DNA from: a virus
Lineage: Duplodnaviria > Caudoviricetes
Virus record (IMG/VR): IMGVR_UViG_3300049846_001293
Coordinates: 1,683 to 65,682 of that record
Length of the DNA stretch: 64,000 bases
Direction: 5' to 3' (one strand)
Every line of letters starts with the position of its first letter. Positions within the stretch are counted from its first letter, which is position 1. Below the pieces are notes generated by a model. It was not told the DNA's origin, did not search any database, and was given only the letters and a program-made list of their open reading frames with translations. Both the position numbers and the translations under genes were made by a program. Positions 1,126-63,358 of the stretch are shown in pieces.

Positions 1126-1129
1126 TTGG

Positions 1130-2053: not shown

Positions 2054-2062
2054 ATGCTCTCC

Positions 2063-2590: not shown

Positions 2591-2984
2591 CGGTCTTCTT
2601 CCGCTTCGACGGAGTCTTCTTGGCACGGGGCTTGCGCGTCTTTTTGATTTCACCTTCAACTAAATCTTTCAACGGCGGTGGTACGGGCTTCGGTGGAAGT
2701 TCATCATCAAATCGCTGTACTGGAGATTCGACGTCCCACGGCAAATCTGTTTGAAGTTCTTTGGCAAATTCTTCTCGTTGTGCCTCAAGTTTATTGCGAA
2801 CGATTTTTTCTCGTTCTAGGTCTTCCACACGCTTCAATACGCTTATGGAATGTTGCGGCAATCCGCTTTCCATAAGACGCTGGGCTTCGAGTTCAAGATG
2901 TACTTCGGCCAATCCTTTATTGTCAAGGCGACCAAACAATCCAAACTTATCGATGATCTTCCAAATATACGTGAGTACAGTCAT
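2583..2984 (-). CDS. Hypothetical protein with basic C-terminal tail
   Basis: ORF in the operon; likely start MTVLTYIW; Lys/Arg-rich end. Confidence 0.6.
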   Translation of the reverse strand: MTVLTYIWKIIDKFGLFGRLDNKGLAEVHLELEAQRLMESGLPQHSISVLKRVEDLEREKIVRNKLEAQREEFAKELQTDLPWDVESPVQRFDDELPPKPVPPPLKDLVEGEIKKTRKPRAKKTPSKRKKTDD

Positions 2985-2985
2985 A

Positions 2986-3144
2986 TTAATGGTCCTTGGT
3001 TGAGCCGGAAACGGCTTGGAGGAAAATAGTTTCAATGAAACGGCCAATCTTCAAACCCTTTCGGTTACAGTAATCGGCTACTTGTTCTTTTATGTCACGC
3101 CGGATTTGTAACGTGGCGTATTCTTCTTTCTTATGTCGTGTCAC
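2986..3144 (-). CDS. Small ribbon-helix-helix-like DNA-binding protein (52 aa)
   Basis: Below the ORF-track cutoff: MTRHKKEEYATLQIRRDIKEQVADYCNRKGLKIGRFIETIFLQAVSGSTKDH; GTG start after GGAG; strand-helix-G-helix pattern. Confidence 0.6.
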   Translation of the reverse strand: MTRHKKEEYATLQIRRDIKEQVADYCNRKGLKIGRFIETIFLQAVSGSTKDH

Positions 3145-3211
3145 AAGGAGTCTCCGTTGGGATGATGACTATACATATCGAGCAATAGTAGAAAACTACT
3201 ACTTATGACAC

Positions 3212-3247
3212 AAAAAACCCGACGCTTGTTAGGGCGTCGGGTTTTTT
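3212..3247. terminator. Bidirectional rho-independent terminator
   Basis: AAAAAACCCGACGC-TTGTTAGG-GCGTCGGGTTTTTT. Confidence 0.85.
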
Positions 3248-3264
3248 GTTTTGATTCGGTGAAG

Positions 3265-3696
3265 TTATCTACGTTGTGCGTATCCGTCTTCCACACCTTG
3301 TGCGTAGGCTACGTCTACACTGAGCATCCCTGTGTTCGGTTCGACCTGAATGGCTCGGTCGTCGTAGAATCGTATCATGTTGTAATCCTTACACGCGGTG
3401 ACCGGCACGATTTGACCCAAATGTGTCAAACACCACTGTTCAATGGCGTGAAGAATTTCGCTTTGTGGAATATCTTGATTGCCGTGCGGTTCTGCACGGG
3501 CCGTCAAAATTCGAATATTCATCCCACTTTCCAATAACGATTTTGCTCGATCCACCATTAATGGAATTGGCGGTCCGATTCGTAAGGGATGATATGGTTG
3601 GCCGTCCTCGCTGTCGGCAAGTGTAGCATCCAGGTCGAATCCTATCCATGCTTCGGAATTTGTCGTTTGAATGTCGTTCGGTGGCATTTCGTGCAT
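3265..3696 (-). CDS. HAD-family phosphatase (PNKP phosphatase-like)
   Basis: WIGFDLDATLA (DxD), ILTAR and YDDRA motifs. Confidence 0.75.
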   Translation of the reverse strand: MHEMPPNDIQTTNSEAWIGFDLDATLADSEDGQPYHPLRIGPPIPLMVDRAKSLLESGMNIRILTARAEPHGNQDIPQSEILHAIEQWCLTHLGQIVPVTACKDYNMIRFYDDRAIQVEPNTGMLSVDVAYAQGVEDGYAQRR

Positions 3697-3818
3697 AATG
3701 TTCGTCCATTGGTTAAATCGTATCGTAGTTCAGGATAATCTTTCCATGATTTTATGTGATCCGCTTCTAGGTTGCCGCCGCGGACGTTACAAAACTGACA
3801 AGTAAAATTATCTCGTTC
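3642..3818 (-). pseudogene. 5'-truncated HNH endonuclease remnant
   Basis: A frame with no start codon reads ERDNFTCQFCNVRGGNLEADHIKSWKDYPELRYDLTNGRTLCTKCH...*, with an in-frame TAG a few codons upstream. Confidence 0.75.
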
Positions 3819-3819
3819 A

Positions 3820-4437
3820 TCATGGTCGATGGGGTTTTGGAAGCGCTAACGCTTCGGTGACAGTAATGGGGTGATAGTTGGTCAGTTCCACGCCAACATT
3901 GATATGATGATCCGAATCGAACAACCAGCCATAGTCCGTGAGGAACATGCTCGGGTTCCTCATCATGTTGTTGTGATGATGTCCGTAGAAATTGAACTGC
4001 CGACCCCACAACTGCTTCTGTGGTTCGTGGCTCAATAGAATACCAACATCGTCCACTTCGACCGCGACCATTTCGGACTTCCAATCATCCGAATGGCCGA
4101 TGATATGACGGAAGTATTCGTGATACAGCGATCGATACTTTCCCCCGTCATTGGCATGTTTGTCGTGGTTGCCTAATAGGATGTAGTGTTCTCCCCTCGG
4201 CCGCCAGGACATCTTTCGGATCGTGTCCGGGCGAAAGACGAAATCGCCTAGGTGAAAGATGGTCTTGCCTGCTTCGTCGGCCTCACGAAAGGCATCAAGC
4301 ATGACCAAATCCATCGCCTCGGTGCCAGCAGGTGAAAATTCGAATGGCCGAGTGCAGTATTTGATGATGTTCTGGTGTCCGAAATGTGTATCGGACCAGA
4401 ACACCACATCGTCATGCTTAAACGTCAGATTTTCCAT
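3820..4437 (-). CDS. Calcineurin-like metallophosphoesterase
   Basis: SDTHFGH, HLGDF, GNHD, SHEP and GHHH motifs; start trimmed to MENLTF. Confidence 0.85.
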   Translation of the reverse strand: MENLTFKHDDVVFWSDTHFGHQNIIKYCTRPFEFSPAGTEAMDLVMLDAFREADEAGKTIFHLGDFVFRPDTIRKMSWRPRGEHYILLGNHDKHANDGGKYRSLYHEYFRHIIGHSDDWKSEMVAVEVDDVGILLSHEPQKQLWGRQFNFYGHHHNNMMRNPSMFLTDYGWLFDSDHHINVGVELTNYHPITVTEALALPKPHRP

Positions 4438-5344
4438 GTATATAGACTTTTCGTTGTCCTGCCGGTAGATAATAGCTATAGGCGCATTTGGTTGCGTCAT
4501 TCTTGAACGGACAGAACTTACAGCTTTTTTCGGAACTGGTCGGTGGCAGGTTATCCAACCGAGGCTGTCCCGCTTCATCAAACGTATCGGTGATCCACTT
4601 CTCCAAGCGGTCCATCGCTTTCTTCATACTCGGTTTGCCATGCGCTGGCACGAATCCCGAAATATGCTTGACGGCGAATTCCGTGTTCTCGGGAATCTTC
4701 CGCTTGAGAATGATGAACTCGACTTGAATATTGTCGATCGGTACACCGAACAATTCGCTGTAATACTTCTTGTACAACAGCAATTGGTCCGTTTTGTTCG
4801 AGTCTTTCTTTTGGTAGTCTTTCCAGCCGCGATCGGAAGTTTTGAAGTCGTAGATCGTGTATGTTTTGGTGGCCTTCTCATACATGACAATGTCGATGAA
4901 TCCCTTGAACTTGAGATTTCGACCAATGTCCAACAATAACGGAACTTCGATGCCCACCAACGTGTGACCGGTGGCAGGAAACCAAGTACGGCCGTGCTTG
5001 CGTACGTGATCTAGAATTTTACATCCATCGGCATAGAACTCCGACAGTTCCTCGGGCGTGGTGAGCTGTTTTCCGGCCACCAACAATTCTTCCTTTGCAC
5101 CCTTGACAAGCTCGGACTTCAGCATGTCATGCATGTCGAACATCTTTGCTTTGGACGCGTCCGAATAGAACAACGTCAACCAATGTTGAATGACCGTGTG
5201 CATCGCCGTTCCGAATACCAAGTTGATATTCGAATCTTCGGTGTGCCCGTCGATGTACTTCAGTTTCCATCGATATGCACACGTACTTCCCATCGTGTAT
5301 TGGGAGAACGAGATATTACGCGGCGTGGGTGTAGTTTCAGTCAT
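4418..5344 (-). CDS. PD-(D/E)XK nuclease (RecB/AddB/Cas4-like)
   Basis: ISFSQY..TC, FGTAMH, GFIDIV, YDFKT, QLLLY motifs and a C-terminal CKFCPF...C cluster. Confidence 0.85.
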   Translation of the reverse strand: MTETTPTPRNISFSQYTMGSTCAYRWKLKYIDGHTEDSNINLVFGTAMHTVIQHWLTLFYSDASKAKMFDMHDMLKSELVKGAKEELLVAGKQLTTPEELSEFYADGCKILDHVRKHGRTWFPATGHTLVGIEVPLLLDIGRNLKFKGFIDIVMYEKATKTYTIYDFKTSDRGWKDYQKKDSNKTDQLLLYKKYYSELFGVPIDNIQVEFIILKRKIPENTEFAVKHISGFVPAHGKPSMKKAMDRLEKWITDTFDEAGQPRLDNLPPTSSEKSCKFCPFKNDATKCAYSYYLPAGQRKVYIHGKSDV

Positions 5345-10035: not shown

Positions 10036-10793
10036 TACCTGTTAAATGTATCCAGTTCCGATACAGTAGGGACGTAATTTAATTCTTTGATTTTCGTGAA
10101 GAACCATGTCTTGAGATTTTTTGATGGGGTGAATCCATAATCTCGAACGTACTTGATCATTCTATTGAATGTATAATCGGCGGTCAATATGGGCTTAACC
10201 GAATCATCCAAATCCAATTGTTTCTTTTCAAGATCGATGAAGAAGTTTGGATGGTGTGCGATCATGGGAATGCCCGCATCATCCACATAATACACCATTT
10301 GACATACTGTGAAATCAAACTCACTTATAATCTCTACCGGCGTGCCAAATCGTAACTTTACCAAATCCAACAATACATTCTCGGTGTTATGCCGAAACCC
10401 AACCGATCGGTCGGATGCATATTCCTTTGTATAGTTTGGATTCAAAGTCAACTTGTGCACCATCGTAGCATGTTCGTTGACATCCGAAAACCAAATGTCA
10501 ATATCACGAATGGGATTGCCGGTCAAAAATTGCTTAAAGCAACCACCGGCAACAAACATGCGTTTCGACACCAATGGTCGGAACCACTCTGCCAACCCCG
10601 TATGTAATTCTCCCGCAGGAACAAGAACCACCGGGAGTACCGGTGGTTCTTTTTTCTGTGGTCGGTCGACTCCAAAAAATACTTCTTCATCCAGGGGCGT
10701 CATCGATGCTGTCGACAGACCACTGCCGACCCAAATCGGATTGATTGCTCCTTGTGCAGACCATGATGTTGGGAACATGTTCTTCGATAACAT
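10032..10793 (-). CDS. Nucleotidyltransferase (CCA-adding/poly(A) polymerase head-like)
   Basis: FVAGGCF...RDIDIWF...FDFTVC motifs; start trimmed to MLSKN (TAATG overlap). Confidence 0.65.
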   Translation of the reverse strand: MLSKNMFPTSWSAQGAINPIWVGSGLSTASMTPLDEEVFFGVDRPQKKEPPVLPVVLVPAGELHTGLAEWFRPLVSKRMFVAGGCFKQFLTGNPIRDIDIWFSDVNEHATMVHKLTLNPNYTKEYASDRSVGFRHNTENVLLDLVKLRFGTPVEIISEFDFTVCQMVYYVDDAGIPMIAHHPNFFIDLEKKQLDLDDSVKPILTADYTFNRMIKYVRDYGFTPSKNLKTWFFTKIKELNYVPTVSELDTFNRY

Positions 10794-12160
10794 TATACCT
10801 CCGCCCGTGAGCGAATTTCGTTGAAGGTGGGATCGACCAATAGTTTTCCATTCTCCCAAATTGTCTGGAGTACATCCTGACCAATTTCATGGATATCTAC
10901 GGTCTGGTATGCGCCGTCCTCGAACACCAGCTTCAATCGACCCGGCTTCGATCGCTTGTTGTTGTCCGTTACTGGCGTCTTTGCAATGTTACGTTCCCGG
11001 CCGTTCACCACGACATAGGACGCCTTCAATGCAAACTTCTGCGTGTCTCGATCCATCTTCTGCAACAGCGCACCACCCATACCAAAGGCTACATTGTCAG
11101 CAGACCAGCCACGAATTTTCAAGGCTTCAAGAATACGACCGATTTCGTCCAAGGTAATACCATCACCCTGAATGACACGAACCTGATTTAGCACCTTGTA
11201 GCCCTTGGTGTTGACCGTATAGCCGAACTTCTCACCAAGGATTTCCACAATCTGTCGAACCACTTCGTTCGGGACGCCGGAATCCGGTCGAACGACGAGC
11301 ATACCCGGCGCTGACTTGACCTTATCTACGAGCATTTCGCCCCAAATCACCTTGGTTGCGTTGTAGATGTCATACGTGTCCGATACCACGGCATACATAC
11401 CGTTGCTGAACTGATTGATCATGTTCTCATAGGCCTCGTATTCGAACTCTCGGCCCCACGCCATGATCGTGGAATGTTCGGCGGCGGGAATGGTCGCAGC
11501 GGGATTCTCGGCGTTGTAATACATCTGTGCCGCGAGGATGGCGACGATGGTATCCGATCCAGCGAAATTCACCAGATGTGACATGCCACCGAGCATTGCC
11601 GATTCTTCGGACGAGACACCACGGTAGCCGAAGTCATGCAACTTGTAGGGCAGTCCCGATACATCACCCGTCTCTTCAAGATACTTCTTGATGAGCTTCT
11701 TGATATTCCGCGAAATCGTCGCGACGGTTGTGGTGTACCAGACCTTCATGACCATGCCTTCCACATAGGTCGTGGCCCAGGCACACTGTTCATCGGTGTT
11801 CTCAATGGACAGTAGAATGTTACGGGTCGGAATGGTCAGGCCTTCGGGTGCCGACTTGATACGAAGCGGCCAGTACCCGTCATAGTTCTTGACGATGTAT
11901 TCGAAGCCGACACGATTGAACACCTTGCTCGTACCAAAGTACGAAGTGAACAACTTTTCGGCCTGATCGATATCGGCCATCGTGATCGGCTTCGAGAAAT
12001 ACTCCTTCAAGATGGCCGTGATGCCGAACCAAGTGACTTCCGGAAATTCACCACCACGCGATTCCAAATACGCGTAGAGCTTCGAAGTCTTGGGCGGAAG
12101 CTGAAGCCAGTGTGACGGCTTGTAGCCGTCGGTACGAAGAATGTTGTTGATCGGTAGCAT
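10793..12160 (-). CDS. nadV: Nicotinamide phosphoribosyltransferase (NAMPT)
   Basis: TDGYKPSH, LHDFGYRG, PAAEHS, VSDTYD, RPDSG, IQGDG, FGMGGALLQ, RDTQKFA motifs. Confidence 0.95.
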   Translation of the reverse strand: MLPINNILRTDGYKPSHWLQLPPKTSKLYAYLESRGGEFPEVTWFGITAILKEYFSKPITMADIDQAEKLFTSYFGTSKVFNRVGFEYIVKNYDGYWPLRIKSAPEGLTIPTRNILLSIENTDEQCAWATTYVEGMVMKVWYTTTVATISRNIKKLIKKYLEETGDVSGLPYKLHDFGYRGVSSEESAMLGGMSHLVNFAGSDTIVAILAAQMYYNAENPAATIPAAEHSTIMAWGREFEYEAYENMINQFSNGMYAVVSDTYDIYNATKVIWGEMLVDKVKSAPGMLVVRPDSGVPNEVVRQIVEILGEKFGYTVNTKGYKVLNQVRVIQGDGITLDEIGRILEALKIRGWSADNVAFGMGGALLQKMDRDTQKFALKASYVVVNGRERNIAKTPVTDNNKRSKPGRLKLVFEDGAYQTVDIHEIGQDVLQTIWENGKLLVDPTFNEIRSRAEV

Positions 12161-12181
12161 GGTATATCTCCTTATCTTGTA

Positions 12182-13090
12182 TCAGGATAGATGTTTGATG
12201 AGTGCGTTCAGTAGTACCATATGTTCCTTCATGACCAGTATGGATTGGGTCGGGAAGATCTGATCATATGGTACCCATTGGACTGACTCAATATCGTCAG
12301 CCCCTTCCGGCCGCCCGAACACATAATCGGCCGTGAAAAACAACGTCTTGATTTTATCCATCTCGTTTCGATATCGCCAGTCATCGATCTTGAAGCTACC
12401 AATGTACTGAAGATTTCCCACTTCGAGTCCCGTCTCCTCGATCACTTCACGTTTGGCGTCGGCTTCAAACGAATCGGAGTTGGGATCGGCGAAACCACCA
12501 ATGAATCGAAGGCCCGGTTCTCCCTTTTTCCGACCCATCAATACGCGACGCTTGTCTCGATCCAAGATCGCAACATCAACGGTCGTATAGACGGTGGGAA
12601 ATCGGTTGAAACTGGCTTCGATGATGCCGGCCCGATGATCTTTGGTATGGGTGGAGGAATTGGCGATACGGCGACGGATTTCCGTCCCGGAGATGAAAAT
12701 CTCTGATTCCAATTCGACCGTCAGATGTTTGCCGGTGTAGTGAACGATGAAGCTATCACGACTACCGTACAATGTGACGGTTTGATGTGGTTTGCACCAC
12801 TTGTCCAGTTCGCGGTCGAGATTTCGGCTCCACACCGCGTCACTGTGCTGGTCTTCAATATAATACACTTCAACGTCCGGATACGTTTCCTGAATCATCC
12901 GTTTCCGTGTATTATAGTCCAGTGGATTGTTGATGGTATTTCGAAGCGGGCTCAAGCCAAGGAAAATGATCACTCGGTCGTGTTGAGCTAATACGGTATC
13001 GATCAATGATCGATGTGCTTCGTGAAGTTCGTGGACCTGAAATCGGCCGACGATGGCGCCCACATCGGATGTGGGAAGTTTCTTTTGCAT
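12182..13090 (-). CDS. nadM: Bifunctional NMN adenylyltransferase / Nudix hydrolase (NatV/NadM-Nudix)
   Basis: GRFQ..HEAH, NPL, SGTEIR, then the Nudix box GGF...AKREVIEETG. Confidence 0.9.
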   Translation of the reverse strand: MQKKLPTSDVGAIVGRFQVHELHEAHRSLIDTVLAQHDRVIIFLGLSPLRNTINNPLDYNTRKRMIQETYPDVEVYYIEDQHSDAVWSRNLDRELDKWCKPHQTVTLYGSRDSFIVHYTGKHLTVELESEIFISGTEIRRRIANSSTHTKDHRAGIIEASFNRFPTVYTTVDVAILDRDKRRVLMGRKKGEPGLRFIGGFADPNSDSFEADAKREVIEETGLEVGNLQYIGSFKIDDWRYRNEMDKIKTLFFTADYVFGRPEGADDIESVQWVPYDQIFPTQSILVMKEHMVLLNALIKHLS

Positions 13091-13121
13091 ATGCCCTTAC
13101 CTTGTATCTGAGGGATGGATG

Positions 13122-13179
13122 CTACATGTAGGTAATGGGTACTCGTCAAGTGACATCTTTCGCCATTACCTATATGTAG
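13122..13179. repeat. 17-bp inverted repeat in the NAD operon leader
   Basis: CTACATGTAGGTAATGG (13122-13138) and CCATTACCTATATGTAG (13163-13179), one mismatch. Confidence 0.85.
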
Positions 13180-13180
13180 T

Positions 13181-13209
13181 AACCTAACAGGCTAAACGTG
13201 CACCGTCAA
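13181..13209 (-). promoter_or_regulatory. Sigma70-like promoter of the NAD operon
   Basis: TTGACG-17 nt-TAGGTT. Confidence 0.65.
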
Positions 13210-13392
13210 CCCCATCGGGGGCGTTGATACCGGCGCAACGCCCAAACTGACTAGAGTTTGGTTGTACTCATTCCATGCAGCCTGGCACCGACCTAGATCG
13301 AAGTCCATCTTTTTGTTCTGACACCCGTACGCTGTGGTGGCGTCAAATTTCTGCCACGCGCGTTGAATACGTCGATATGTGACGTTGTCCAT
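13192..13392 (-). CDS. Hypothetical protein
   Basis: TAATG overlap with the upstream gene. Confidence 0.5.
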   Translation of the reverse strand: MDNVTYRRIQRAWQKFDATTAYGCQNKKMDFDLGRCQAAWNEYNQTLVSLGVAPVSTPPMGLTVHV

Positions 13393-14447
13393 TAGAAATC
13401 ACTTCCTCCGCCGCCACCAGAGAATCCACCACCACCGCCAAAGGAATCGGAACTACTGGAAGAACTGTCCGATGAGGAGGATCCATAATATGAGGTATCC
13501 GTCGAATACGACGATCGGCGACGTCGTTCATCCTCTTCGTCTTCACGTTCTCGACGGGCCTTTTCTTCCTTCAACCGACGAACACGAGCTTTCTCTTCGT
13601 TGATTTCTCGTTGTTTAGCCGCTTTCCATTCCTGTTCCTTGCGAAATGCGATTTCGGCGGCCTGTTCTTCCGGTGTCAACGCATCCCATCGTGCCTTTTC
13701 TTTTCGTGCAGCTTCAGCGGCGCGTGCTTCGGCCTGACGACGTTGTTCTTCTGCTTGTCTTCGTACTTTGGCATTGTGTGCCGCCCACATTGCCCGTGTT
13801 CGTCGGTCTTCCTCTTCCTGCAATCGACGTTGCCGGCGAAGCAGAAGTAATCCACAAATGAACAACCCACTGATAATGAACACTGCCCAGATGATGGTAG
13901 TGGGATCCATCGGGTCGGCCGGCACGACCACCGGTGGTGATACGTGTTCTTGCATGAGGGCCGATACTGACGTAACCAAATTCAGCGTGGCCTCTCCATA
14001 TTTGGAAGCTTGGAACAACGTTCGGTTATCACGACACAATGTGCCTGCTTTGCTATCGGTGATGAACCCCTCGGCACCACGACCGGTGCCAATGAAACAC
14101 TTACCACCGTGATTGGCCGTTCGTGGCACGATAAGAATGACCACACCAAGGTTTCGTTGTTCCGACCCGATCGCGGCGGACCCACCCACTCGCCACTGCC
14201 GACCGGCTGTCATCGCGACTTCAGCAGGCAGATAGTCATGGATGTCAGTCAACGTAAGTACGGCAATATCACCACCGATCGTCGCTTGCGTACGTCGTGC
14301 AACATCATTCATCGCCGTAATTTCATTGGGTGCGAACAACCTTGCGGCATCAGTGACGAACGGCGTCGCTGGTGGGATGAGACTGTCCAATTTGGTCTGC
14401 GCCGAGGCGGTGGTGGCCAACAGACCCAACATCCATAACCATTTCAT
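13392..14447 (-). CDS. TPM-domain (YgcG-like) membrane protein
   Basis: Signal peptide, FVTDAA...W.VG...GVVILI...GTGRGAEGFITD, TM helix, charged coil, FGGGGGFSGGGGGSDF tail. Confidence 0.85.
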   Translation of the reverse strand: MKWLWMLGLLATTASAQTKLDSLIPPATPFVTDAARLFAPNEITAMNDVARRTQATIGGDIAVLTLTDIHDYLPAEVAMTAGRQWRVGGSAAIGSEQRNLGVVILIVPRTANHGGKCFIGTGRGAEGFITDSKAGTLCRDNRTLFQASKYGEATLNLVTSVSALMQEHVSPPVVVPADPMDPTTIIWAVFIISGLFICGLLLLRRQRRLQEEEDRRTRAMWAAHNAKVRRQAEEQRRQAEARAAEAARKEKARWDALTPEEQAAEIAFRKEQEWKAAKQREINEEKARVRRLKEEKARREREDEEDERRRRSSYSTDTSYYGSSSSDSSSSSSDSFGGGGGFSGGGGGSDF

Positions 14448-14704
14448 AATAAATTCCTTATGTATACGATTTTAGAAAGCAGATCATTAAGTTCGGTCAC
14501 ATCTTTCATGAGTTTTTCACGTTGACGAATAAGGTTCAGCATCGTTCGATCAAACTCTGTTGTGTCATCATCTTCATTAACCTTGCGACGAGCATAGAAA
14601 AGAATCTCATCAATCTTGTCAAGATTGAGCACATCGTTTTGTTCGATTCGAGAAATCAAACGACGTAATTGTACAAACGTAGGAAGATTTCGTTTACGTA
14701 TCAC
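14444..14704 (-). CDS. Hypothetical coiled-coil protein
   Basis: ORF with 4-nt overlaps on both sides. Confidence 0.55.
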   Translation of the reverse strand: MIRKRNLPTFVQLRRLISRIEQNDVLNLDKIDEILFYARRKVNEDDDTTEFDRTMLNLIRQREKLMKDVTELNDLLSKIVYIRNLL

Positions 14705-15048
14705 GATGCTACGTCCTCTGAGTTGGTTGTGCGTGCGTCATACACTCGGCACGCTTTGTTGTAGGCGCCGATAAGGGTTTTATCAGTTTCTCCGTTGACG
14801 GTCCAGTGTCTAGAGGTCAATTTGTTCGGATCATCAGCATCGAAATATCCATCCGTGTGGTCGATCTTCCACCCACGACTGGCGATAACTGCCATGGGCA
14901 TCGTGCCTGCGTCTATCGTATTCAATAGAACCCTGTGTGCATAGTACGCATCTTCTCGCCGGCGGCGTACCATAGCAATTTCATCTCGATGCCACATCAG
15001 GCTGATGAGTAGTGCGAATGCTAATAGTCCAAAAATCCATGCAAACAT
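14701..15048 (-). CDS. Hypothetical membrane-anchored protein
   Basis: N-terminal hydrophobic helix. Confidence 0.55.
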   Translation of the reverse strand: MFAWIFGLLAFALLISLMWHRDEIAMVRRRREDAYYAHRVLLNTIDAGTMPMAVIASRGWKIDHTDGYFDADDPNKLTSRHWTVNGETDKTLIGAYNKACRVYDARTTNSEDVAS

Positions 15049-15051
15049 GAG

Positions 15052-16362
15052 TTAATCCTTGAAAGGGTCAATGACATCATCACCGGCCATCACCACGATG
15101 ACCGGCTTAAGGGTGTGCAACACCGTCACGGTGTCGCCCTGTGCGGCCAGAACGTCCGGCAATCGACGATAGGCCTGTGGGGCTTCGTCCAGACCTCCGC
15201 CACGGAGAACCACGCCCGTCGAACGCAGCCACTTCTCCATTTCCTGCGGCGAGATACGGCCGGCATTGATGATCTCACCGGTGATCTTGTGCCGCTTCAA
15301 CTGACCTGTCTTGCGGTCACGCTTGCCAGCCGCTTCCGTTCGGGACATGACACGACCTGCGCCGTGGACCGTAGAATACAATGCGTTACGTTGTAGCGAT
15401 TCAATGAAGAGTTCATAGGGTGCTTCGTCCAATGCTGTTTTGCCACAATCGGTTCCCTCCAGAATCACCGCGTCATCACCCATCGAACCGCCAACGAACC
15501 CACGCTGACCAGGGAACGCAGGCGTGGCACCCTTACGAACCACAATGAGTTCTTTGTTGTCGTGCGTTTCCTTCCACGCGAAGTTGTGGTGGTTGTGCAC
15601 CATGTCGACTTCAGCGCCACCGAGGATCTTCACGACCGTGCGAGTAACCCACTCACGGCCGGCGTACGCGTACTGCCCGGCGAGGTTCATCAACGCCCAG
15701 TAATCGTCACCGGTTGGTGTGCCGAGCGTGACCAACGTCTCCACTTCCCGGCTTCGGTCACCCCACGTTCCACCTTGGCCGATGGCTAGGAAGTTCGTCG
15801 CAATTGTGTGACCAAGTCCACGAGAACCGAAATGCACACCAACCCAAAGAGCACCATCGGCTCGATCAACAAAAACATCAACGTAATGATTGCCCGACCC
15901 AACTGTACCGAGCTGACGACGAGCCTTGTCCAGAAGGTCATCCCGATATCTCCCAATGTTAGGAATCAAATACCACGCTGGGTCCAGAAACAGTGGGTGG
16001 TCCACCGGTGCATCATTGGCCACGTTCGACCGACCAATGCCAAAGCTGATAGCCTGTGCGATCGCATCGGCCAACTTGTTCAGCGTTGGATTGGAATATA
16101 CGGCATATGGGTTAGCATCCATATCCGCGACAGTCATCCCCAACACATCCTGTGCGTTGAGGTTCGTTTTGATCGCGCAGTTACCACATGCGATATCGTA
16201 TCCGACGCCCGGCACGGATACTTGGTTATCATAGGCCGCAACACCACCGACCGGCATGATATAGCCAAAGTGCCCGTCCGCCATCAATGCGGCACGAACG
16301 GATTGTGCTCGAATGGCATCGAACTGTGCGAGAGTGTTGGAATCGTGTTTACCGAAAATCAT
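15052..16362 (-). CDS. rtcB: RtcB RNA ligase
   Basis: MADGH.GY..PVGG, GYDIACG, GTVGSGNHY, HFGSRG, HNHHN, RKGATPA, HGAGR, DEAPQAYR; start trimmed to MIFGKHD. Confidence 0.95.
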   Translation of the reverse strand: MIFGKHDSNTLAQFDAIRAQSVRAALMADGHFGYIMPVGGVAAYDNQVSVPGVGYDIACGNCAIKTNLNAQDVLGMTVADMDANPYAVYSNPTLNKLADAIAQAISFGIGRSNVANDAPVDHPLFLDPAWYLIPNIGRYRDDLLDKARRQLGTVGSGNHYVDVFVDRADGALWVGVHFGSRGLGHTIATNFLAIGQGGTWGDRSREVETLVTLGTPTGDDYWALMNLAGQYAYAGREWVTRTVVKILGGAEVDMVHNHHNFAWKETHDNKELIVVRKGATPAFPGQRGFVGGSMGDDAVILEGTDCGKTALDEAPYELFIESLQRNALYSTVHGAGRVMSRTEAAGKRDRKTGQLKRHKITGEIINAGRISPQEMEKWLRSTGVVLRGGGLDEAPQAYRRLPDVLAAQGDTVTVLHTLKPVIVVMAGDDVIDPFKD

Positions 16363-16553
16363 GGTGTTTTTCCATTCAGTTTTTGCGTTATAGATTCGAT
16401 GAGGCCCGCCGCGGACCCGTGATGCAGATGTGAATGTCCACTGCCCAAATACACCGCGGCTTGTGTGCCGCCATTCATCGGTACAATGTGTGTAATCCAA
16501 TTTAACATGAGGATCATTGGACCGTGTTCGGTGCTTAATTCAATGTATTTCAT
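16359..16553 (-). CDS. Small hypothetical protein
   Basis: ATGA overlaps on both sides. Confidence 0.6.
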   Translation of the reverse strand: MKYIELSTEHGPMILMLNWITHIVPMNGGTQAAVYLGSGHSHLHHGSAAGLIESITQKLNGKTP

Positions 16554-18097: not shown

Positions 18098-18133
18098 AAT
18101 CTAACACAAAGACCCCTCGAAATCAAGGGGTCT
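18098..18133 (-). promoter_or_regulatory. Sigma70-like promoter overlapping a hairpin or terminator
   Basis: TTGATT-17 nt-TAGATT within the AGACCCCT...AGGGGTCT stem. Confidence 0.5.
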
Positions 18134-18146
18134 GAAATGTGAGCAA

Positions 18147-18962
18147 TTAGAAGGTAAAGAACTTGCGAAGCTGCTTCGTACTTTCCAGTTTCCGGGTGTT
18201 TGACTTGACCGTCTTGTTGTGCTGATTGCTGGCAGTGGCATTGTATACAATAGACGGGGTATCGGACCATTCTCCTGTGTCAAGGTCTTGGATCTTCCAC
18301 TCCAAATCGGCCTGTTTGGGATATGGCGTGTTCCAATCCATCGGAGACTCTCGGAGCAAGGCCTTCTGTTCTTTCTTGCCACAGGTGAAATAGACGTATC
18401 GAAACTGCTTGCCTCGAACGTGTTGCCATCCCCGTTGTTTCAGAATCGTTAACGTGGGACGATGGCCGTATTTGGTGGTGGTTTTGTCTCCCATCGTTTG
18501 AGAAGTTCGTGGATGTACCTTTTCGCCGGTTTCAGCAATATAGAGGTCCGTCCAGATGAATCCACCGTATTTGAAATTGGCCGCTTGATACACATACCCC
18601 GGCTTACCCAAAATACCATCGGCCCACGTAAACAACACCTTGCACGTGGTATTGTCCTTGATCCATTGAACTACACGGGATAGAAAGATGGACTCGGAAT
18701 TCTTGGGCATCGACTCATCCATGCACATCTTGCCGATCTCATAGTAGTCGGTGCGTTCCAATGATGGAAACAACAATTTAATGGTGTGTACCGGTCGAAC
18801 ACCCCACCCCAATGTCATCACCCCGACCAATGTATCATCAATGAACCCGCCGAGATAATGTTCGGTGAGCTTCGGCATGATCTTGCTGTAGTGGTGAGCA
18901 AAAATGAGTTCGATAGCCTGCATCTTATCGATGGGTCGAACTTCCAGTTTCGTGATATCCAT
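18147..18962 (-). CDS. Mom-like GNAT-fold DNA modification protein 1
   Basis: HHYSK, LVGVMTLG, EIGKMC, KNSES..LS, LFTWAD...GYVYQAANFKYGG. Confidence 0.75.
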   Translation of the reverse strand: MDITKLEVRPIDKMQAIELIFAHHYSKIMPKLTEHYLGGFIDDTLVGVMTLGWGVRPVHTIKLLFPSLERTDYYEIGKMCMDESMPKNSESIFLSRVVQWIKDNTTCKVLFTWADGILGKPGYVYQAANFKYGGFIWTDLYIAETGEKVHPRTSQTMGDKTTTKYGHRPTLTILKQRGWQHVRGKQFRYVYFTCGKKEQKALLRESPMDWNTPYPKQADLEWKIQDLDTGEWSDTPSIVYNATASNQHNKTVKSNTRKLESTKQLRKFFTF

Positions 18963-19783
18963 TATTTGTTTTGTCTGAGCGTGAACGTGCCGTCACCGAC
19001 ACCTGAAATCCGTTCCACCGAAACCACGGTGCCGGTGGAATCAACGGTAATCTTCTGAATCAATTGATCCACCGGTTGTAAACTATCATACCCAATGATA
19101 GGCAACTTCAGCAGTTTCTTCAATCGTTTGGTTTCTTTCTTATCGGTCAAGAAATAAAGATACCGGTGTTTCGCCGTTTCTTCCTTGCGCCAGAACGTGT
19201 GACCGATAGCTTGTGCAAGATTCTCGATTTTCTTGTTCCCGAACCGTTCGCTGACCGACCGACTATGCATCCACGGACCGTCTTCGGCCAATCGAATGCT
19301 ATAGTCCGGCATGAGTTTACTGACGCCACAACCCTGATACAGCCAGTTGGTTGCTTGGTAGATTTTTCCGATGTGGCCCACTTCAGGATCCGCATAACTG
19401 ATCAACACCTTCACAGCCGGGTCATTTTCTCGAATCCATTTGAATGATTGACCGATGACATACGATTCTATGTTCTTTCCGTATCCATCATTGATGTGCA
19501 ACCGAATCAACTCCAATACCTCATTCAGTGCCAACACTCCTACTCCACAGATCGAATCGATTGCACGATTGCTGACCGGATGGGCATAGACAATCGTTCC
19601 GATCAATGTATCGCCGAGGTCAAAGAACTTATTGGTATTGCCTTTTGCATACACACCCAACGCATATCGACACCCATTCATATTTTGGGTGTAATGATGG
19701 GTTTCGATCCACTCTTTAGCAACCGATTTATGAATCGGACGAACCGATATTACCGTCGGATCAACATATACATCAGTGGTCAT
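18962..19783 (-). CDS. Mom-like GNAT-fold DNA modification protein 2
   Basis: HHYT, LIGTIVY, LELIRL, KNIES, LISYADPEVGHIGKIYQATNWLYQG, KHRYLY. Confidence 0.8.
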   Translation of the reverse strand: MTTDVYVDPTVISVRPIHKSVAKEWIETHHYTQNMNGCRYALGVYAKGNTNKFFDLGDTLIGTIVYAHPVSNRAIDSICGVGVLALNEVLELIRLHINDGYGKNIESYVIGQSFKWIRENDPAVKVLISYADPEVGHIGKIYQATNWLYQGCGVSKLMPDYSIRLAEDGPWMHSRSVSERFGNKKIENLAQAIGHTFWRKEETAKHRYLYFLTDKKETKRLKKLLKLPIIGYDSLQPVDQLIQKITVDSTGTVVSVERISGVGDGTFTLRQNK

Positions 19784-20151
19784 GGTTTGATTGACTTCAT
19801 GATGGATTCGTCTATTTTCTTGGCTATTTGTTCGGACAAATCCTTAGCCATCATCTTCTCAAGTTTTTTCAATGCTTGTGGATCCCAAAATGATTCTATG
19901 TCTTGTGCAAGTTCAACCGTCCATTTAGCCTTCAATTTTCGTGGTCTATGTTGTGGGACGGACTGCCATTCGAATTGGTCCGGTCCTACATGACCTTTCA
20001 CTACGATACTGTCAAAATATTTGACATGATCGGGAATGTCCTTCCACGCTACACCGGCTACGCTTGTGATTACACCCGCGACAATTTGCGTATCATTGCC
20101 ATGTGGATGAAATACTGGATACAGAGAACTTACAATAGTCCATTTTTTCAT
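19780..20151 (-). CDS. Small protein: shared N-terminal domain plus gp23 capsid-like fragment (RKLKAKWTVELAQD)
   Basis: Paralogous to 20158-20499 at the N-terminus; the C-terminus resembles a conserved gp23 segment. Confidence 0.7.
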   Translation of the reverse strand: MKKWTIVSSLYPVFHPHGNDTQIVAGVITSVAGVAWKDIPDHVKYFDSIVVKGHVGPDQFEWQSVPQHRPRKLKAKWTVELAQDIESFWDPQALKKLEKMMAKDLSEQIAKKIDESIMKSIKP

Positions 20152-20157
20152 ATCATA

Positions 20158-20499
20158 TTAGGGTTTAAGAGAAGAGGATTTTGCCCAGTCGATGTAAAAC
20201 ATCAATCCTGATGGCAGATTCATCGGTTGGACCGATATCAGACTTGAGGCTGACAGAGGCGGGAACGCAGTCTTAACATTGGGTATCGCCAGTGGTGATT
20301 CAATCCATTGAAAATCGTCAACGGTAACGCCGGATTTACAAACTAAACCACCGCAATACTTTGCTGAGTCAGGAATATCAATCCATAAGACGCCGGCGAC
20401 ACTGACGATTTTTCCAGCAATACACACTTTCCGACCACCCTGGACATACACAATTTCCGGTCGAGCCGTGCTTACAATTTCCCATGGAGATTTGATCAT
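20158..20499 (-). CDS. Small protein: shared N-terminal domain plus gp23 Gol-region-like fragment (SVQPMNLPSGLMFYID)
   Basis: Paralogous to 19780-20151; the C-terminus carries the gp23 VQPM motif; start MIKSPW. Confidence 0.7.
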   Translation of the reverse strand: MIKSPWEIVSTARPEIVYVQGGRKVCIAGKIVSVAGVLWIDIPDSAKYCGGLVCKSGVTVDDFQWIESPLAIPNVKTAFPPLSASSLISVQPMNLPSGLMFYIDWAKSSSLKP

Positions 20500-20500
20500 A

Positions 20501-23182
20501 TTAGAATGTGAACCATTTGAAGGCACTTTGATTGATTTCCGTGGGCAATAAGCCCCAGTTCAAAGCATCATAGAAATCTTGCAACTTATTCTTCAACTCT
20601 TTTTCATAGAGCCAATCATAATCCATATACTCGTCCACAAGCGCCACGAGTTCCGGTGGGTCATCATATCCTTTGAGAGCTATCGTGTGAATTCCCAACT
20701 CGTTCTTTTTCAACTGCGTCCACTTGATCTTCGCACCGTCCCGAATGGATTCGTGAATCTTGTCCAACTTGAATTTTCGGAGATATCGATTGTATGTGAT
20801 CGCAGCTTTGACGTGCGCCGAACACCCCGATGGAAACTTATCGAAGCTCTTCTCTTTCTTCAGATCATAGACTTCCAATTCACTCACGGACGTATTACGA
20901 GCAACCTCCACGAACTTCAAGGTGTTCATGTGTGATCGGAATGCCAACAATAGTTCATCCAGCTCGGGCTTCTGGCTCTTACGAAGGATTTTGTTGAGAA
21001 CATCTGCCATGACCGCCTGAAACGCCGGCGGGAAACTGGAACGAACCACATCCAATCCCTTGACCTTGAACATCTTGTTCGCAATGCGTTTCCGTTCGAC
21101 ATCTGTAGTTGCCTTGGCATATGACAGTTCCAAGTCTTCGTTCTTGTCCAAGTCGTACACCACCCGCATGGCATATCGTTTCTTGGCTACCCAAAACGCC
21201 GTTTCACAAACCGCTTCACCCTTGATGAACAGTCGAGTGTTCTGGCAGAAGAACATTTTCTGCGACATGATCTTGTAGAACGTATTGAGTTGTGATTCGA
21301 ATTGCTTTGCGGTTTGTACGGCAAATTGCTTCAAATCACCCGTGGATTGGAGCGGAACGATGGAGAAATACACCGAATCGGTGTCGATATAGAGACAATG
21401 GTCATTAGGATCCAAGAATCCTTGAATTTCGGCCTCAGTCAATGGCGGTTTCACATCTCGCAACACTTCTTCATACCGATGCAACCACGCATCAGTCTTC
21501 GGCGCGACACCGGCCGCTTTGTATTGATTGGACAGATATTTTGAGGTGGTCTTGATGACATCCTGCCCAGTGGCCGTAACAGCCAAGGCATTATCCAAAT
21601 CGTAGAATCGGAAAATGGGAAGTCCCAACACACCGTAAATGGAATTCAGTAGAATCTTCTGTACGTGTTGTCGGCGGTCATAGTATTCGGACAATTCCAC
21701 GTTGCCGGCTTCAGCATATTGCTTTTTGAGTTTGTTGTATTCGATACGTTCAGCGAACCACTTATCAAGGATTTGTGGAATGACGCCGACCTTGTCGGAC
21801 CGATACAACACACCATTGCTGCTCAGCATGAATCCTTCACTGGTCATGAATTCCATGAATTGATCTTTGGTCAACACATTTTCCACGGACCCGATAGCCA
21901 CGATATATTGACCATCATTCGACTCGAAGTGCGACTTGATGTTCCAATTCTTCACATACCCCACTTTCGTTTCCGGGGAAATGTTCAAGCTCATGATGAT
22001 CGATGGGTACAGCGAATTTAGGTCCAAGTTGAAGACCCATTCATGGAGATCCGGCATCGGCGGCTTCACAAATGCGCCGGCGAATCCTTCTTCGTTATCG
22101 TCTAATCGTTGATCGAATTCGTCTCGTCCTTCCGGTCGCTTGTTAGGCGCGACACGGCCCAGACGATGCAAATACACAAGAATAGTTCCGTCAATATATT
22201 TCGAACTATACGGATAATCGTCATATTGCGTATGACCCACATGTGAGATGTTTTTGACCAAGTCAATAAGCTTCATTTTCTTGTCAATAGCCACCACAAT
22301 ACGCACGTCTTGCAAATTATATCGAATGAATTCGGGAAGGTTCGTCTCGAACAACTGATCAAGGGTTCCGTCATACTTGATCTTTCCCATACCTACTTCA
22401 TACATGCCGATGGCATCCAGTCGATAGGACGGCCGGCGAGCGAAAGTGAACTTCTGATACATATCGAAGTAGTCGAGACAACTGACACCCGCAATTTGAT
22501 ATCGATCTCGCATTCGGCTGAATCGCACGATGCCGATCGGACTCAGCATATTTGCTGTATCCTGATCGAATACGTTCCCTAGTCGATGGTAGAGATATGG
22601 AATGTCATAGGCATTACTGTTCCATCCGACCAGAATTGTCGGTTGGAGTTCACAGTAGAATTCCATGAAGGACGCCAGCATTTCGGCCTCGGTGTCGAAC
22701 CCACGTACCACACAGCCGTCAATGAGCTGGTTCCGGTTCGTCATTTTACCGTGTTGGTCCCATACCCACATCAATTCTCGCTTGTTGAACTCGTCATAAC
22801 AACCGATGGCCGTGATTTCCTTGTCGGCTTTTTCAACCGACGCAAATCCACCTTCGGAGCTGACTTCGATGTCAAAGAATAGGGTACGATGTCCCTTTGC
22901 GACCTTATCACTATGCAAATAGAGGTCGGTCAGTACACGAGTTTCTCGTTGTACGTCACTTTCGAAAATACCACGGGTATGTTCGTTCCATCGGTAGGTC
23001 TTGCTGACCCGGTCGCCGTAAATCGTTTCTAGTGGGCCTGACGGATCCAATTTATAGGCATATTCGAAGTCGGAGAACGGTAATACCCGAAGTCCCGCAT
23101 CATTATCCTCGCCGTCACCCCAAATATACACCTGTGCCGGCTCGTCATCCGTTCGATTGCTCACGTAAATGTTCTGGTACAA
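20501..23182 (-). CDS. gp43: Family B DNA polymerase (gp43-like)
   Basis: FDIE, GWNSNAYD, YNLQD exonuclease motifs; DLNSLYPS, KILLNSIYG, YIDTDS, KKRY; TTG start. Confidence 0.97.
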   Translation of the reverse strand: MYQNIYVSNRTDDEPAQVYIWGDGEDNDAGLRVLPFSDFEYAYKLDPSGPLETIYGDRVSKTYRWNEHTRGIFESDVQRETRVLTDLYLHSDKVAKGHRTLFFDIEVSSEGGFASVEKADKEITAIGCYDEFNKRELMWVWDQHGKMTNRNQLIDGCVVRGFDTEAEMLASFMEFYCELQPTILVGWNSNAYDIPYLYHRLGNVFDQDTANMLSPIGIVRFSRMRDRYQIAGVSCLDYFDMYQKFTFARRPSYRLDAIGMYEVGMGKIKYDGTLDQLFETNLPEFIRYNLQDVRIVVAIDKKMKLIDLVKNISHVGHTQYDDYPYSSKYIDGTILVYLHRLGRVAPNKRPEGRDEFDQRLDDNEEGFAGAFVKPPMPDLHEWVFNLDLNSLYPSIIMSLNISPETKVGYVKNWNIKSHFESNDGQYIVAIGSVENVLTKDQFMEFMTSEGFMLSSNGVLYRSDKVGVIPQILDKWFAERIEYNKLKKQYAEAGNVELSEYYDRRQHVQKILLNSIYGVLGLPIFRFYDLDNALAVTATGQDVIKTTSKYLSNQYKAAGVAPKTDAWLHRYEEVLRDVKPPLTEAEIQGFLDPNDHCLYIDTDSVYFSIVPLQSTGDLKQFAVQTAKQFESQLNTFYKIMSQKMFFCQNTRLFIKGEAVCETAFWVAKKRYAMRVVYDLDKNEDLELSYAKATTDVERKRIANKMFKVKGLDVVRSSFPPAFQAVMADVLNKILRKSQKPELDELLLAFRSHMNTLKFVEVARNTSVSELEVYDLKKEKSFDKFPSGCSAHVKAAITYNRYLRKFKLDKIHESIRDGAKIKWTQLKKNELGIHTIALKGYDDPPELVALVDEYMDYDWLYEKELKNKLQDFYDALNWGLLPTEINQSAFKWFTF

Positions 23183-23483
23183 TGGATCCGCCTAAAATGG
23201 ATGTAAGACTGTCAAATCGTGCGTCGCCGACCCAGTCTTTGAGTTGATTACGAAAGTTATCATTCGACCAGAGTTCTGTCAAGGCATATTCAAATGCTTC
23301 GTTTTCTGGTATTCCCCAGCCATGTGGGGTTTGAAAATGGACAAGTTTTCCGTCCAACGTCACTTCCAATTCATAGGTGCCCCAATTCCGTACATTTCGG
23401 CGACTGTATGAGAATGGTTGAGATTGAATCCACGACAATAACGTTGGTAGTTGTCCTGTTTCACTGGGTAATAGATTAGGCAT
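23145..23483 (-). CDS. Hypothetical protein
   Basis: Fills the gap between dUTPase and polymerase; likely start MPNLL. Confidence 0.5.
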   Translation of the reverse strand: MPNLLPSETGQLPTLLSWIQSQPFSYSRRNVRNWGTYELEVTLDGKLVHFQTPHGWGIPENEAFEYALTELWSNDNFRNQLKDWVGDARFDSLTSILGGSIVPEHLREQSNG

Positions 23484-23943
23484 CACTACTGCCAAATCCT
23501 TTATCTCCTCGTTTTGTGTCACTCAACTCCTCCACTTCGAGAATTTCCACGATCGGCGATGCCACCAATACCATCTGTGCGATTTTCATTCCCATCGACA
23601 CATGGAATGGATCGGTGCCGGTATTATGCATCAATACTTTGATTTCACCACGATATGACGGGTCAATAACACCGGCATGAACATAGACATTGTATTTGCT
23701 AGCAATCGAACTACGATCTTTAAGGATACCACCATATGACAACCAATACGAATTCATCAGACCTTCGGTGATGTATCGAGTAGGAAATTGACATGCGATT
23801 CCCGTGTGAACCAATGCCGCGGCACCTGGATCGATAACCGTATGTTGGGACGCGTACAAATCCAATCCCAAATCGTCATCATGTGCTTTCGTCGGAATCG
23901 TAGCAAACTCCGACAACTTCTTGAATCGAATGTCCATAACCAT
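23476..23943 (-). CDS. dut: Trimeric dUTPase
   Basis: GLDL, RSS, GVIDPSYRGEI, IAQ, RGDKGFGSS. Confidence 0.95.
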   Translation of the reverse strand: MVMDIRFKKLSEFATIPTKAHDDDLGLDLYASQHTVIDPGAAALVHTGIACQFPTRYITEGLMNSYWLSYGGILKDRSSIASKYNVYVHAGVIDPSYRGEIKVLMHNTGTDPFHVSMGMKIAQMVLVASPIVEILEVEELSDTKRGDKGFGSSDA

Positions 23944-23966: not shown

Positions 23967-24677
23967 TTATTTGGTGGTGCTAAGTGTAACCTTTACATCG
24001 TCCGTGAATGCACCATATGACTCATTCATCATTGGTCCTGATGTTACGCCACGGGTCATCATGTACGATCCCAGTGAATTTGCAGTCGCTGTATATGTTA
24101 CTGAAGCACCGGTTGCGGTACTGTTGTACGTCGCGATGTTATTGATCGAGGCACCGAATGTCTGTTGTGCCGCGTGGATATCCACATTGGCCAATAGATA
24201 GGTGAACGTCCAGTTACCCTGGTCCTGTAACCGTTTGATTTCGTCCGTAAGAATTTGTTGTGTGACTTCTCGTGACGCATTCTCCTGACCATCGGAAATG
24301 ACACAGATAAGGTATGCGGTGTCCTTGGTAGCCGGTTTACTCTTCAAGGTGTTGATGGCGGTCCAAATGCCATCATACATGGCCGTGCCACCCCGCGGTT
24401 GAAAATCGTTCATACCCCATTCCGTGAGTTGATCGGGCTTCGCTGAATCCATCACCGTGTCAATTTCTGTGTCAAACTGTACTACGGTGATTTCCGTGTC
24501 GCCGGCCACATTGCCGGCTTTGCGAATGGCTTCGAATTGTTGATTGATACCGTCTACGGTTTGCTTATGAATGCTACTCATAGATCCCGATCGATCCAGT
24601 ACAATGGCAATGTAGGTTTTCTTGTTAGGCTTCTTCGTCCGCGTCTTCTTTGGTGTAACCTTCTTCTTAACGGCCAT
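23967..24677 (-). CDS. von Willebrand factor A domain protein
   Basis: VLDRSGSM (MIDAS), GGTAMYD, ISDGQENAS; start MAVKKK after AAGGAG. Confidence 0.85.
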   Translation of the reverse strand: MAVKKKVTPKKTRTKKPNKKTYIAIVLDRSGSMSSIHKQTVDGINQQFEAIRKAGNVAGDTEITVVQFDTEIDTVMDSAKPDQLTEWGMNDFQPRGGTAMYDGIWTAINTLKSKPATKDTAYLICVISDGQENASREVTQQILTDEIKRLQDQGNWTFTYLLANVDIHAAQQTFGASINNIATYNSTATGASVTYTATANSLGSYMMTRGVTSGPMMNESYGAFTDDVKVTLSTTK

Positions 24678-24837
24678 TGGTAGCTCCTTTCGGGGACATC
24701 CCCAGTTTATCGAAAATGTTGGTGGGTCGAACGTATGGTGCCGGTACATAAGTCACCGTGGGATAGTAGACCCACACCGGTTGATATACAATCGGCGGTC
24801 GGCAATAATGACAGCAACAGTGGTGGTGACAACACAT
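24667..24837 (-). CDS. 56-aa Cys/His-rich micro-protein
   Basis: Not in the ORF track: MCCHHHCCCHYCRPPIVYQPVWVYYPTVTYVPAPYVRPTNIFDKLGMSPKGATNGR; AAGGAG RBS and TAATG overlap. Confidence 0.65.
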   Translation of the reverse strand: MCCHHHCCCHYCRPPIVYQPVWVYYPTVTYVPAPYVRPTNIFDKLGMSPKGATNGR

Positions 24838-63240: not shown

Positions 63241-63294
63241 AACAAGTCATACCTCCACATCATAGTATATTAATACATAGTGTGAATGTGGTCG

Positions 63295-63335
63295 AAAAAC
63301 ATAAAGGAGCATCTCGTTAAAGATGCTCCTTTATG
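63295..63335 (-). terminator. Rho-independent terminator after the capsid gene
   Basis: 15-bp stem CATAAAGGAGCATCT/AGATGCTCCTTTATG followed by TTTTT on the minus strand. Confidence 0.85.
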
Positions 63336-63358
63336 AACTTCGACTTAATCAGTTACGA

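Follow-up and report, generated by a model that had tools for sequence, protein, structure and literature searches.

Two adjacent genes, ORF2 and ORF1 (ORF, open reading frame), in the virus record IMGVR_UViG_3300049846_001293 are tandemly duplicated members of a rare phage gene family, and in each of them an orphan β-barrel of ~65 residues carries a 35–60-residue peptide derived from gp23, the T4-type major capsid protein. The 64,000 bases analyzed, hereafter the window, are bases 1683–65682 of a 65,682-base viral contig with an estimated completeness of 30%. The family is very probably functional at the protein level; that its members act by mimicking capsid segments is a more tentative reading, which we hold at somewhat less than even confidence. 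We rate the gene architecture as categorically new.

Two Adjacent Genes Share One Domain and Then Diverge

ORF1 and ORF2 match each other by BLASTP (E 7e-16). Over the first ~66 residues they are 45% identical, with 29 of 69 alignment columns invariant, and they diverge thereafter, much as the original prediction—made by a model from the sequence alone—had described for a ~65-residue N-terminal domain. We refer to this shared domain as D. The parts of the two genes are as follows.

20158–20499, minus strand: ORF2, 113 amino acids from ATG, or 122 amino acids from GTG at 20526
20299–20499, minus strand: ORF2 residues 1–67, domain D (BLASTP; a small β-barrel in the model)
20179–20298, minus strand: ORF2 residues 68–107, capsid piece comprising the end of the N-arm and the first strand of the insertion-domain (I-domain) linker (T4 gp23 92–131; hhalign, BLASTP)
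20158–20178, minus strand: ORF2 C-terminal residues 108–113 (ending LKP) and TAA stop (sequence)
19780–20151, minus strand: ORF1, 123 amino acids
19960–20151, minus strand: ORF1 residues 1–64, second copy of domain D (BLASTP, AlphaFold2)
19798–19959, minus strand: ORF1 residues 65–118, capsid piece made up of the returning strand of the I-domain linker, the short helix of the P domain, and the beginning of the spine helix (T4 gp23 251–311; Pfam, hhalign)
19780–19797, minus strand: ORF1 C-terminal residues 119–123 (ending IKP) and stop; the stop shares bases with the start codon of Mom-like gene 1 (ATGA)

The C-terminal KP is common to ORF2, ORF1, and the relative P0003 described below. The nine-base junction CTAATATGAT occurs twice, between the upstream polymerase gene and ORF2 and again between ORF2 and ORF1, as fits a tandem duplication. 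The contig holds only two copies of D and three Gp23 matches, namely the capsid gene and the tails of ORF1 and ORF2. Identical contigs from a sequencing run of another study span 19643–19887, 19966–20116, and 20141–20684; they cross the junctions, so the genes are not an assembly chimera.

The TAA of ORF2, two further codons, and the ATG of ORF1 lie in one frame (20152–20160), and the stops and starts of neighboring genes overlap or stand 1–6 nucleotides apart. No Shine–Dalgarno-like sequence precedes the starts of ORF2, ORF1, or the first Mom-like gene (19740–20560). Such tight joints without Shine–Dalgarno sites suggest coupled translation or a host that uses these sites little.

Both Tails Are Related to gp23

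Profile and pairwise searches identify both tails as gp23-derived. ORF1 residues 71–120 match positions 148–193 of the Pfam Gp23 family (PF07068; E 8.5e-7, 29.1 bits, above the cutoff of 24.4), and ORF2 residues 69–104 match positions 6–41 (E 1.1e-3, 18.9 bits, below that cutoff). Both proteins also match PHROG 138, the major head protein (ORF1, E 1.4e-6; ORF2, E 9.4e-3). In tblastn against 50,697 phage records, the ORF2 tail matches capsid genes down to E 7e-7, and ORF1 matches 1404 records, nearly all capsid or vertex genes, with a best E of 3e-3 among the matches listed. Within LR756508.1, an uncultured 484-kb record, the two tails map by tblastn to a single gene, ~550 bases apart; in its 544-amino-acid capsid protein, ORF2 residues 55–110 align to 65–118 (E 4e-13) and ORF1 residues 60–118 to 302–357 (E 8e-9).

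The presence of gp23 sequence in the tails had been predicted subject to an HHpred-type profile check, and that check supports it. When the profile of each ortholog group was aligned by hhalign to a five-sequence capsid protein alignment, ORF2-type residues 68–107 fell on T4 gp23 92–131 (E 1.7e-10; pairwise alignment gives 93–125), and ORF1-type residues 59–118 fell on T4 gp23 251–311 (E 1.5e-11). A sequence search of the PDB gave the same assignment: All seven matches of the ORF1-type profile are T4-type gp23/gp24 chains, and all four of the ORF2-type profile are gp23 chains.

The further claim that the end of the ORF1 tail aligns with the phage's own capsid protein stands only through full-length relatives. 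Compared directly with the part of that protein encoded in the window (63359–64000), the tail shares 8 of 24 residues (E 0.09), a match that is not significant by itself. The divergence of the ORF1 tail far exceeds that of true capsid orthologs, and the tail is not a recent copy.

Of the 376 positions in the Gp23 profile, the tails span only 46 (ORF1) and 36 (ORF2), and an HK97 fold would need far more; ORF1 and ORF2 are therefore not capsid proteins and cannot form a shell subunit. This agrees with the original prediction, as does the placement of the two genes in the replication region, ~43 kb from the capsid gene.

Passages on gp23 structure in PMC9546572 describe an insertion domain suspended from two long linkers; these correspond to the E-loop of HK97 and make contacts within and between capsomers. 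According to the same passages, the N-terminal region of gp23 before L106 probably touches the scaffold core of the prohead and later forms the N-arm and N-fist, which bind Soc together with the linkers; M98, H282, and M284 of one subunit cluster and face the portal whiskers. Of the T4 head-length mutations given there, A94V and G97S fall, by alignment numbering, in the ORF2-type segment, and A268V, A275T, D285V, and D287V/N fall in the ORF1-type segment (PMC9546572). The segment mapping and these passages together place the tails as the two flanks of the insertion domain, neighbors in the fold.

The ORF2 tail would also be the counterpart of Gol, which we take to be gp23 residues 93–122. In passages of PMC3014915, Gol is 29 residues long, is the part of gp23 with the highest conservation, and binds domains II/III of EF-Tu; a suggestion that gp23 proteins meet EF-Tu in all hosts is cited there as well.

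Domain D Is Modeled as a Small Barrel

AlphaFold2, run with the seven-sequence family alignment, models D as a small six-stranded barrel. The predicted local distance difference test (pLDDT) score of this block is mostly ~90 (79–94 across the two models, over the first 60–70 residues), with 79–94 over residues 1–70 of ORF2 and 88–93 over residues 1–60 of ORF1. The ORF2 tail has pLDDT <50 in the monomer model, and the ORF1 tail is modeled as helices 77–86 and 91–120. Tails modeled as unfolded (ORF2) or as a lone helix (ORF1) are what would be expected of peptides that require a partner. Co-folding of ORF1 with ORF2 scored 0.00, a value that tells neither for nor against an interaction.

Comparisons of fold and family leave D without a match. 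Foldseek against the PDB, with models of both proteins, returned nothing at E ≤ 1e-3, and BFVD gave no match at the same threshold. VIA-align against 48,161 chains reached a best Z of only 2.2 for the ORF2 model and, for the ORF1 model, matched only the helix, to coiled coils. Pfam and PHROGs hold no significant match to D, their weak rows being Tox-HNH-HHH (E 0.04) and phrog_20165 (E 0.22); NCBIfam gave only weak rows, at E 0.033 or worse and far below cutoffs; and none of the seven family members matches PADLOC-DB at E ≤ 1. Language-model features place D with bacterial SH3 domain clusters (0.82–0.85), a lead only. We also considered D as a remnant of a capsid domain and rejected this origin: The hhalign probability is 0.06%, and no gp23/gp24 chain appears among the fold matches.

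A Rare Family Retains Both Tail Types

A profile of D searched against 1.84 billion representatives returned five proteins at E ≤ 1e-3 (ORF1, P0003, P0004, P0005, and P0006), all of 94–131 amino acids, and a word-index search added a sixth, P0008. No longer or fused form of D was found in the former search or in an aimed search, the latter being weak evidence. The relatives, with their scores against Pfam Gp23, are as follows.

P0003: ORF2-type, N-arm tail; E 3.4e-5, 23.8 bits (below 24.4)
P0008: ORF2-type, N-arm tail; E 8.5e-3, 16.0 bits (below 24.4)
P0004: ORF1-type tail; E 1.4e-11, 44.9 bits (above 24.4)
P0005: helix only, weakly like the spine helix
P0006: no tail

Five of the seven family members thus match Pfam Gp23 (best E 1.4e-11). 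An N-arm tail occurs in three, a strand-plus-helix tail in two, a helix alone in one, and no tail in one. A catalog of what is fused to D elsewhere had been proposed with the original prediction; across these seven members it contains only capsid pieces or nothing. The helix-only and tailless members indicate that D can stand alone.

By identity counts, the tail of ORF2-type orthologs is about as conserved as D: The three pairs have 42/68 identities in D versus 25/45 in the tail, 41/68 versus 18/43, and 40/68 versus 24/45. Relatives with recognizable open tails have a D only 56–62% identical. That the tails stay open and recognizable at such divergence argues against neutral debris, the outcome that would have undone the prediction. 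Neither paralog type is confined to a single phage, which makes the duplication old and means that each copy has held on to its own tail. A tree of D groups members by tail type with the minimum number of changes, three, and its support is weak (76/85; 38 of 200 shuffles do equally well). P0003 was called with an extra N-terminal stretch, and this is similar to the stretch that ORF2 gains in an alternative frame, overlapping the end of the polymerase gene; the likeness suggests that the same polymerase–ORF2 junction may exist in a relative phage.

None of the 50,697 phage records, all cultured T4-like phages among them, contains the family. Searches of IMG/VR with ORF1, ORF2, the family alignment, P0003, P0004, or the polymerase found no close relatives; megablast of 19000–23500 against the phage collection gave no match; and the tail-poor P0005 and P0006 had no tblastn match in phages at E < 1. 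A scan of JGI metagenomes with P0003 yielded two loci, both of which we rejected as ordinary full-length capsid genes.

Genomic Setting

ORF2 and ORF1 occupy the gap between a polymerase gene and two Mom-like genes. These neighbors and the head and tail genes near the far end of the window are as follows.

20501–23182, minus strand: family B DNA polymerase, directly upstream of ORF2 (tblastn)
18962–19783, minus strand: Mom-like gene 1, 273 amino acids (Pfam PF25680, E 9.6e-44)
18147–18962, minus strand: Mom-like gene 2, 271 amino acids (Pfam PF25680, E 3.6e-49)
18110–18133, minus strand: terminator-like hairpin with a 10-pair stem (consensus scan), which would close a polymerase–ORF2–ORF1–Mom–Mom unit
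63359–64000, minus strand: gp23-type major capsid protein of the same phage, of which the window encodes the last 213 residues; the contig stops short of the N-terminal part
57317–59698: tail sheath gene, at the same end of the window as the capsid gene

The surroundings of ORF1 and ORF2 are replication and nucleotide genes, encoding a DnaB-like helicase, ribonucleotide reductase, a von Willebrand factor A (VWA) protein, dUTPase, the family B DNA polymerase, DNA ligase, RtcB, and enzymes of nicotinamide mononucleotide/nicotinamide adenine dinucleotide (NMN/NAD) salvage. The polymerase is 37% identical to PolB of Microcystis phage Mel-JY01 (tblastn), the nearest cultured relative by this gene, and the region downstream of the polymerase in Mel-JY01 holds different genes. 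The two tandem Mom-like genes stand directly downstream of ORF1 and are joined to each other by a stop/start codon overlap. Terminator-like sites in the region are not above chance (5 observed versus 5.4 expected). The long open reading frames of the window lie nearly all on the minus strand. Metagenome runs containing this DNA are from freshwater or freshwater sediment, and no RNA dataset is among the sequencing runs that contain matching DNA.

Identity between the capsid fragment and its LR756508.1 counterpart is 66%. Just 3′ of the capsid gene stop lies a 24-nucleotide inverted repeat (63291–63344; 88% complementary, 6-nucleotide loop), likely a strong terminator. The contig end (64000) falls within the capsid gene, a few codons past the stretch homologous to the ORF1 tail. 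This proximity is probably a coincidence: We considered a repeat-induced contig break and set it aside, as the tails and the in-window part of the capsid gene share no DNA repeat.

Three further features of the window stand apart from ORF1 and ORF2. Between 48100 and 55900 lie families of diverged direct repeats, with units of ~120–300 nucleotides in up to 16 copies, inside large minus-strand open reading frames (46623–48275, 48279–50147, and 52722–55973); none of these frames has a Pfam match, and they probably encode repetitive fiber-like proteins. At 10793–16500 on the minus strand, genes for NAMPT, a cytidylyltransferase-NUDIX protein, a TPM-domain protein, and RtcB adjoin an ATP-dependent DNA ligase, a cluster that suggests NAD salvage and RNA repair in a T4-like phage. 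The VWA-domain protein gene (23967–24749, minus strand) sits between the dUTPase gene and unknown genes of the replication block.

Possible Mimicry of Capsid Segments

The tails are short, conserved, and unfolded when alone; they come from the most interaction-rich part of the capsid protein; and they are mounted on a stable carrier encoded in the presumed polymerase operon. This combination favors mimicry. The peptides were copied long ago from a gp23-type major capsid protein. Under the mimicry explanation, the proteins would be made from the polymerase operon, cotranscribed with the polymerase and separately from the capsid gene. The soluble carrier would then present two interaction-rich capsid surfaces to a factor that normally engages unassembled capsid protein, and this presentation would compete with or pre-empt the contact between that factor and the capsid protein. 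The factor that we would guess first is some component of the host by which this region is read: either EF-Tu, as in the case of Gol, or a capsid-sensing defense protein.

The original prediction had spoken of a modular epitope-display array. A constant carrier with different capsid pieces is indeed what we find, whereas "array" overstates two genes. The observation behind that prediction is thus confirmed, and its interpretation is supported in part, by the architecture, the gp23 match, and the retention of the tails. Its more specific version—that the proteins are immune decoys—we consider doubtful. To the same low degree we entertain a new class of countermeasure, in which a barrel displaying the Gol/EF-Tu-binding N-arm stretch and the adjacent strand and helix would be made with the replication genes and would occupy or blunt host sensors before capsid protein appears, the paralogs covering two halves of one recognition surface.

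Several observations weigh against mimicry. A Gol-like peptide made early should set off a Lit-type sensor rather than block it. Expression timing is deduced solely from gene position: Promoter-like sites in the region are not above chance (13 observed versus 11.0 expected), and the T4 late-promoter motif is not enriched (3 observed versus 1.45 expected), with none near ORF1 or ORF2. Within the family, one member has a helix only and another no tail, and the ORF1-type tail evolves faster than D (16/53 identities versus 36/64 between ORF1 and P0004). All orthologs are known from single contigs of 557–5208 nucleotides, and the family is very rare and so not a general strategy.

Alternative Explanations

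The main alternative is that ORF1 and ORF2 are head-assembly accessory proteins, whose tails would dock on capsid protein, scaffold, or portal in the manner of the N-arm and linker strands, by strand complementation. D would then serve as a knob, cap, or chaperone, for example where the arm of a neighbor is missing, or in holding capsid protein until assembly. The functions ascribed to these segments in the passages of PMC9546572 fit this role: contacts within and between capsomers and with scaffold and portal whiskers, the Soc site, and the head-length mutations. The two pieces are also colinear with the capsid protein, and D of ORF1 sits at the position of the insertion domain. The genes, however, lie in a block for replication and nucleotide metabolism, ~43 kb from the head genes, and their absence from the phage records searched, cultured T4-like phages included, implies that assembly has no general need of them. 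We regard this explanation as unlikely on balance, though one to be taken seriously.

It is improbable that the proteins are weapons against coinfecting T4-like phages, with conserved strands that poison the folding or assembly of a competitor's capsid. The copied segments are the most conserved of the family and would fit many gp23 proteins, and the placement of the genes suggests expression apart from late genes. Selectivity is not evident, however: The ORF2 tail shares 15 of 17 residues (from SVQPM to the aromatic residue that follows the aspartate) with the closest full-length capsid protein and should poison the phage's own capsid too.

Slightly less probable still is that the tails are nonfunctional leftovers: Illegitimate recombination would have attached parts of a capsid gene to a small gene that had duplicated, and the tails would persist with no role of their own. 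The members with a reduced tail or none would suit this origin, as would the low identity between the ORF1 tail and the capsid protein of the same phage (8/24, versus 66% between capsid proteins). Leftovers would not be expected to remain open and recognizable, in both tail types, in relatives whose D is 56–62% identical, nor to be about as conserved as D in the ORF2 type; the frames carry no frameshifts, and each stops shortly past its capsid-like part.

We find it very improbable that ORF1 and ORF2 are partners or regulators of the two Mom-like enzymes, with the capsid pieces tying DNA modification to head assembly or packaging. Two D genes are followed by two Mom-like genes, the ORF1 stop overlaps a Mom-like start, and a hairpin follows the second; this neighborhood is the sole evidence, and ORF1, which lacks cysteine, is not a zinc finger of the Com type. 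Equally improbable is a single read-through protein, a miniature capsid stem of D, N-arm/strand, D, and strand/helix with the second D in the place of the insertion domain: The one-frame passage from the ORF2 TAA to the ORF1 ATG and the order of the pieces would suit it, but adjoining genes share a frame by chance one time in three, standard-code translation works well for the rest of the window, and the orthologs are called as separate short proteins.

Relation to Known Systems

In the parts of the literature covered—on Gol and Lit, on capsid decoys and anti-defense, and on gp23 fragments or duplication—we found no proteins that join a carrier to a capsid fragment and no capsid-derived decoys. 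Among the closest known systems is Gol itself, the part of T4 gp23 that triggers Lit via EF-Tu. The ORF2-type tail is positionally homologous to T4 gp23 92–131, the most conserved stretch of gp23, and the passages of PMC3014915 describe Gol in those terms. Unlike Gol, the stretch here is on a separate small protein, behind a carrier and encoded beside the polymerase, and its resemblance to Gol is one of position only.

The gp23/gp24 proteins (PF07068), which combine an HK97 fold with an insertion domain, are homologous in sequence to the two segments; ORF1 and ORF2 lack the A domain, the P-domain sheet, and the insertion domain. Soc binds the N-arm/linker surface of gp23, whereas ORF1 and ORF2 would imitate that surface and are encoded away from the head genes.

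Com of phage Mu, a zinc finger translational activator of mom, is likewise the product of a small gene that lies immediately before a Mom-family gene and overlaps it, but ORF1 lacks cysteine, and neither Pfam nor NCBIfam supplies a family match of this kind. DSAD1 is a phage protein that acts against DSR2, a defense triggered by a structural protein. Should the decoy reading be true, the two would be alike in that a phage protein interferes with the sensing of a virion protein, as the abstract of PMC11087589 describes for DSAD1. DSAD1 is not known to be derived from the DSR2 trigger, whereas the candidate decoy here would be a partial copy of its trigger.

Implications for Phage Biology

Few triggers of bacterial immunity are commoner than capsid proteins, and the family may bear on how phages cope with this by means that leave the capsid unmutated. 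A conserved family that copies the most constrained stretches of the capsid onto a soluble carrier would be a handle on that question or, alternatively, on how the N-arm and linker strands steer head assembly. D itself, at ~65 residues and without known relatives, is a natural scaffold for "peptide display." The family also allows the long-standing idea that gp23-type proteins meet EF-Tu through their Gol region in many hosts to be tested outside T4.

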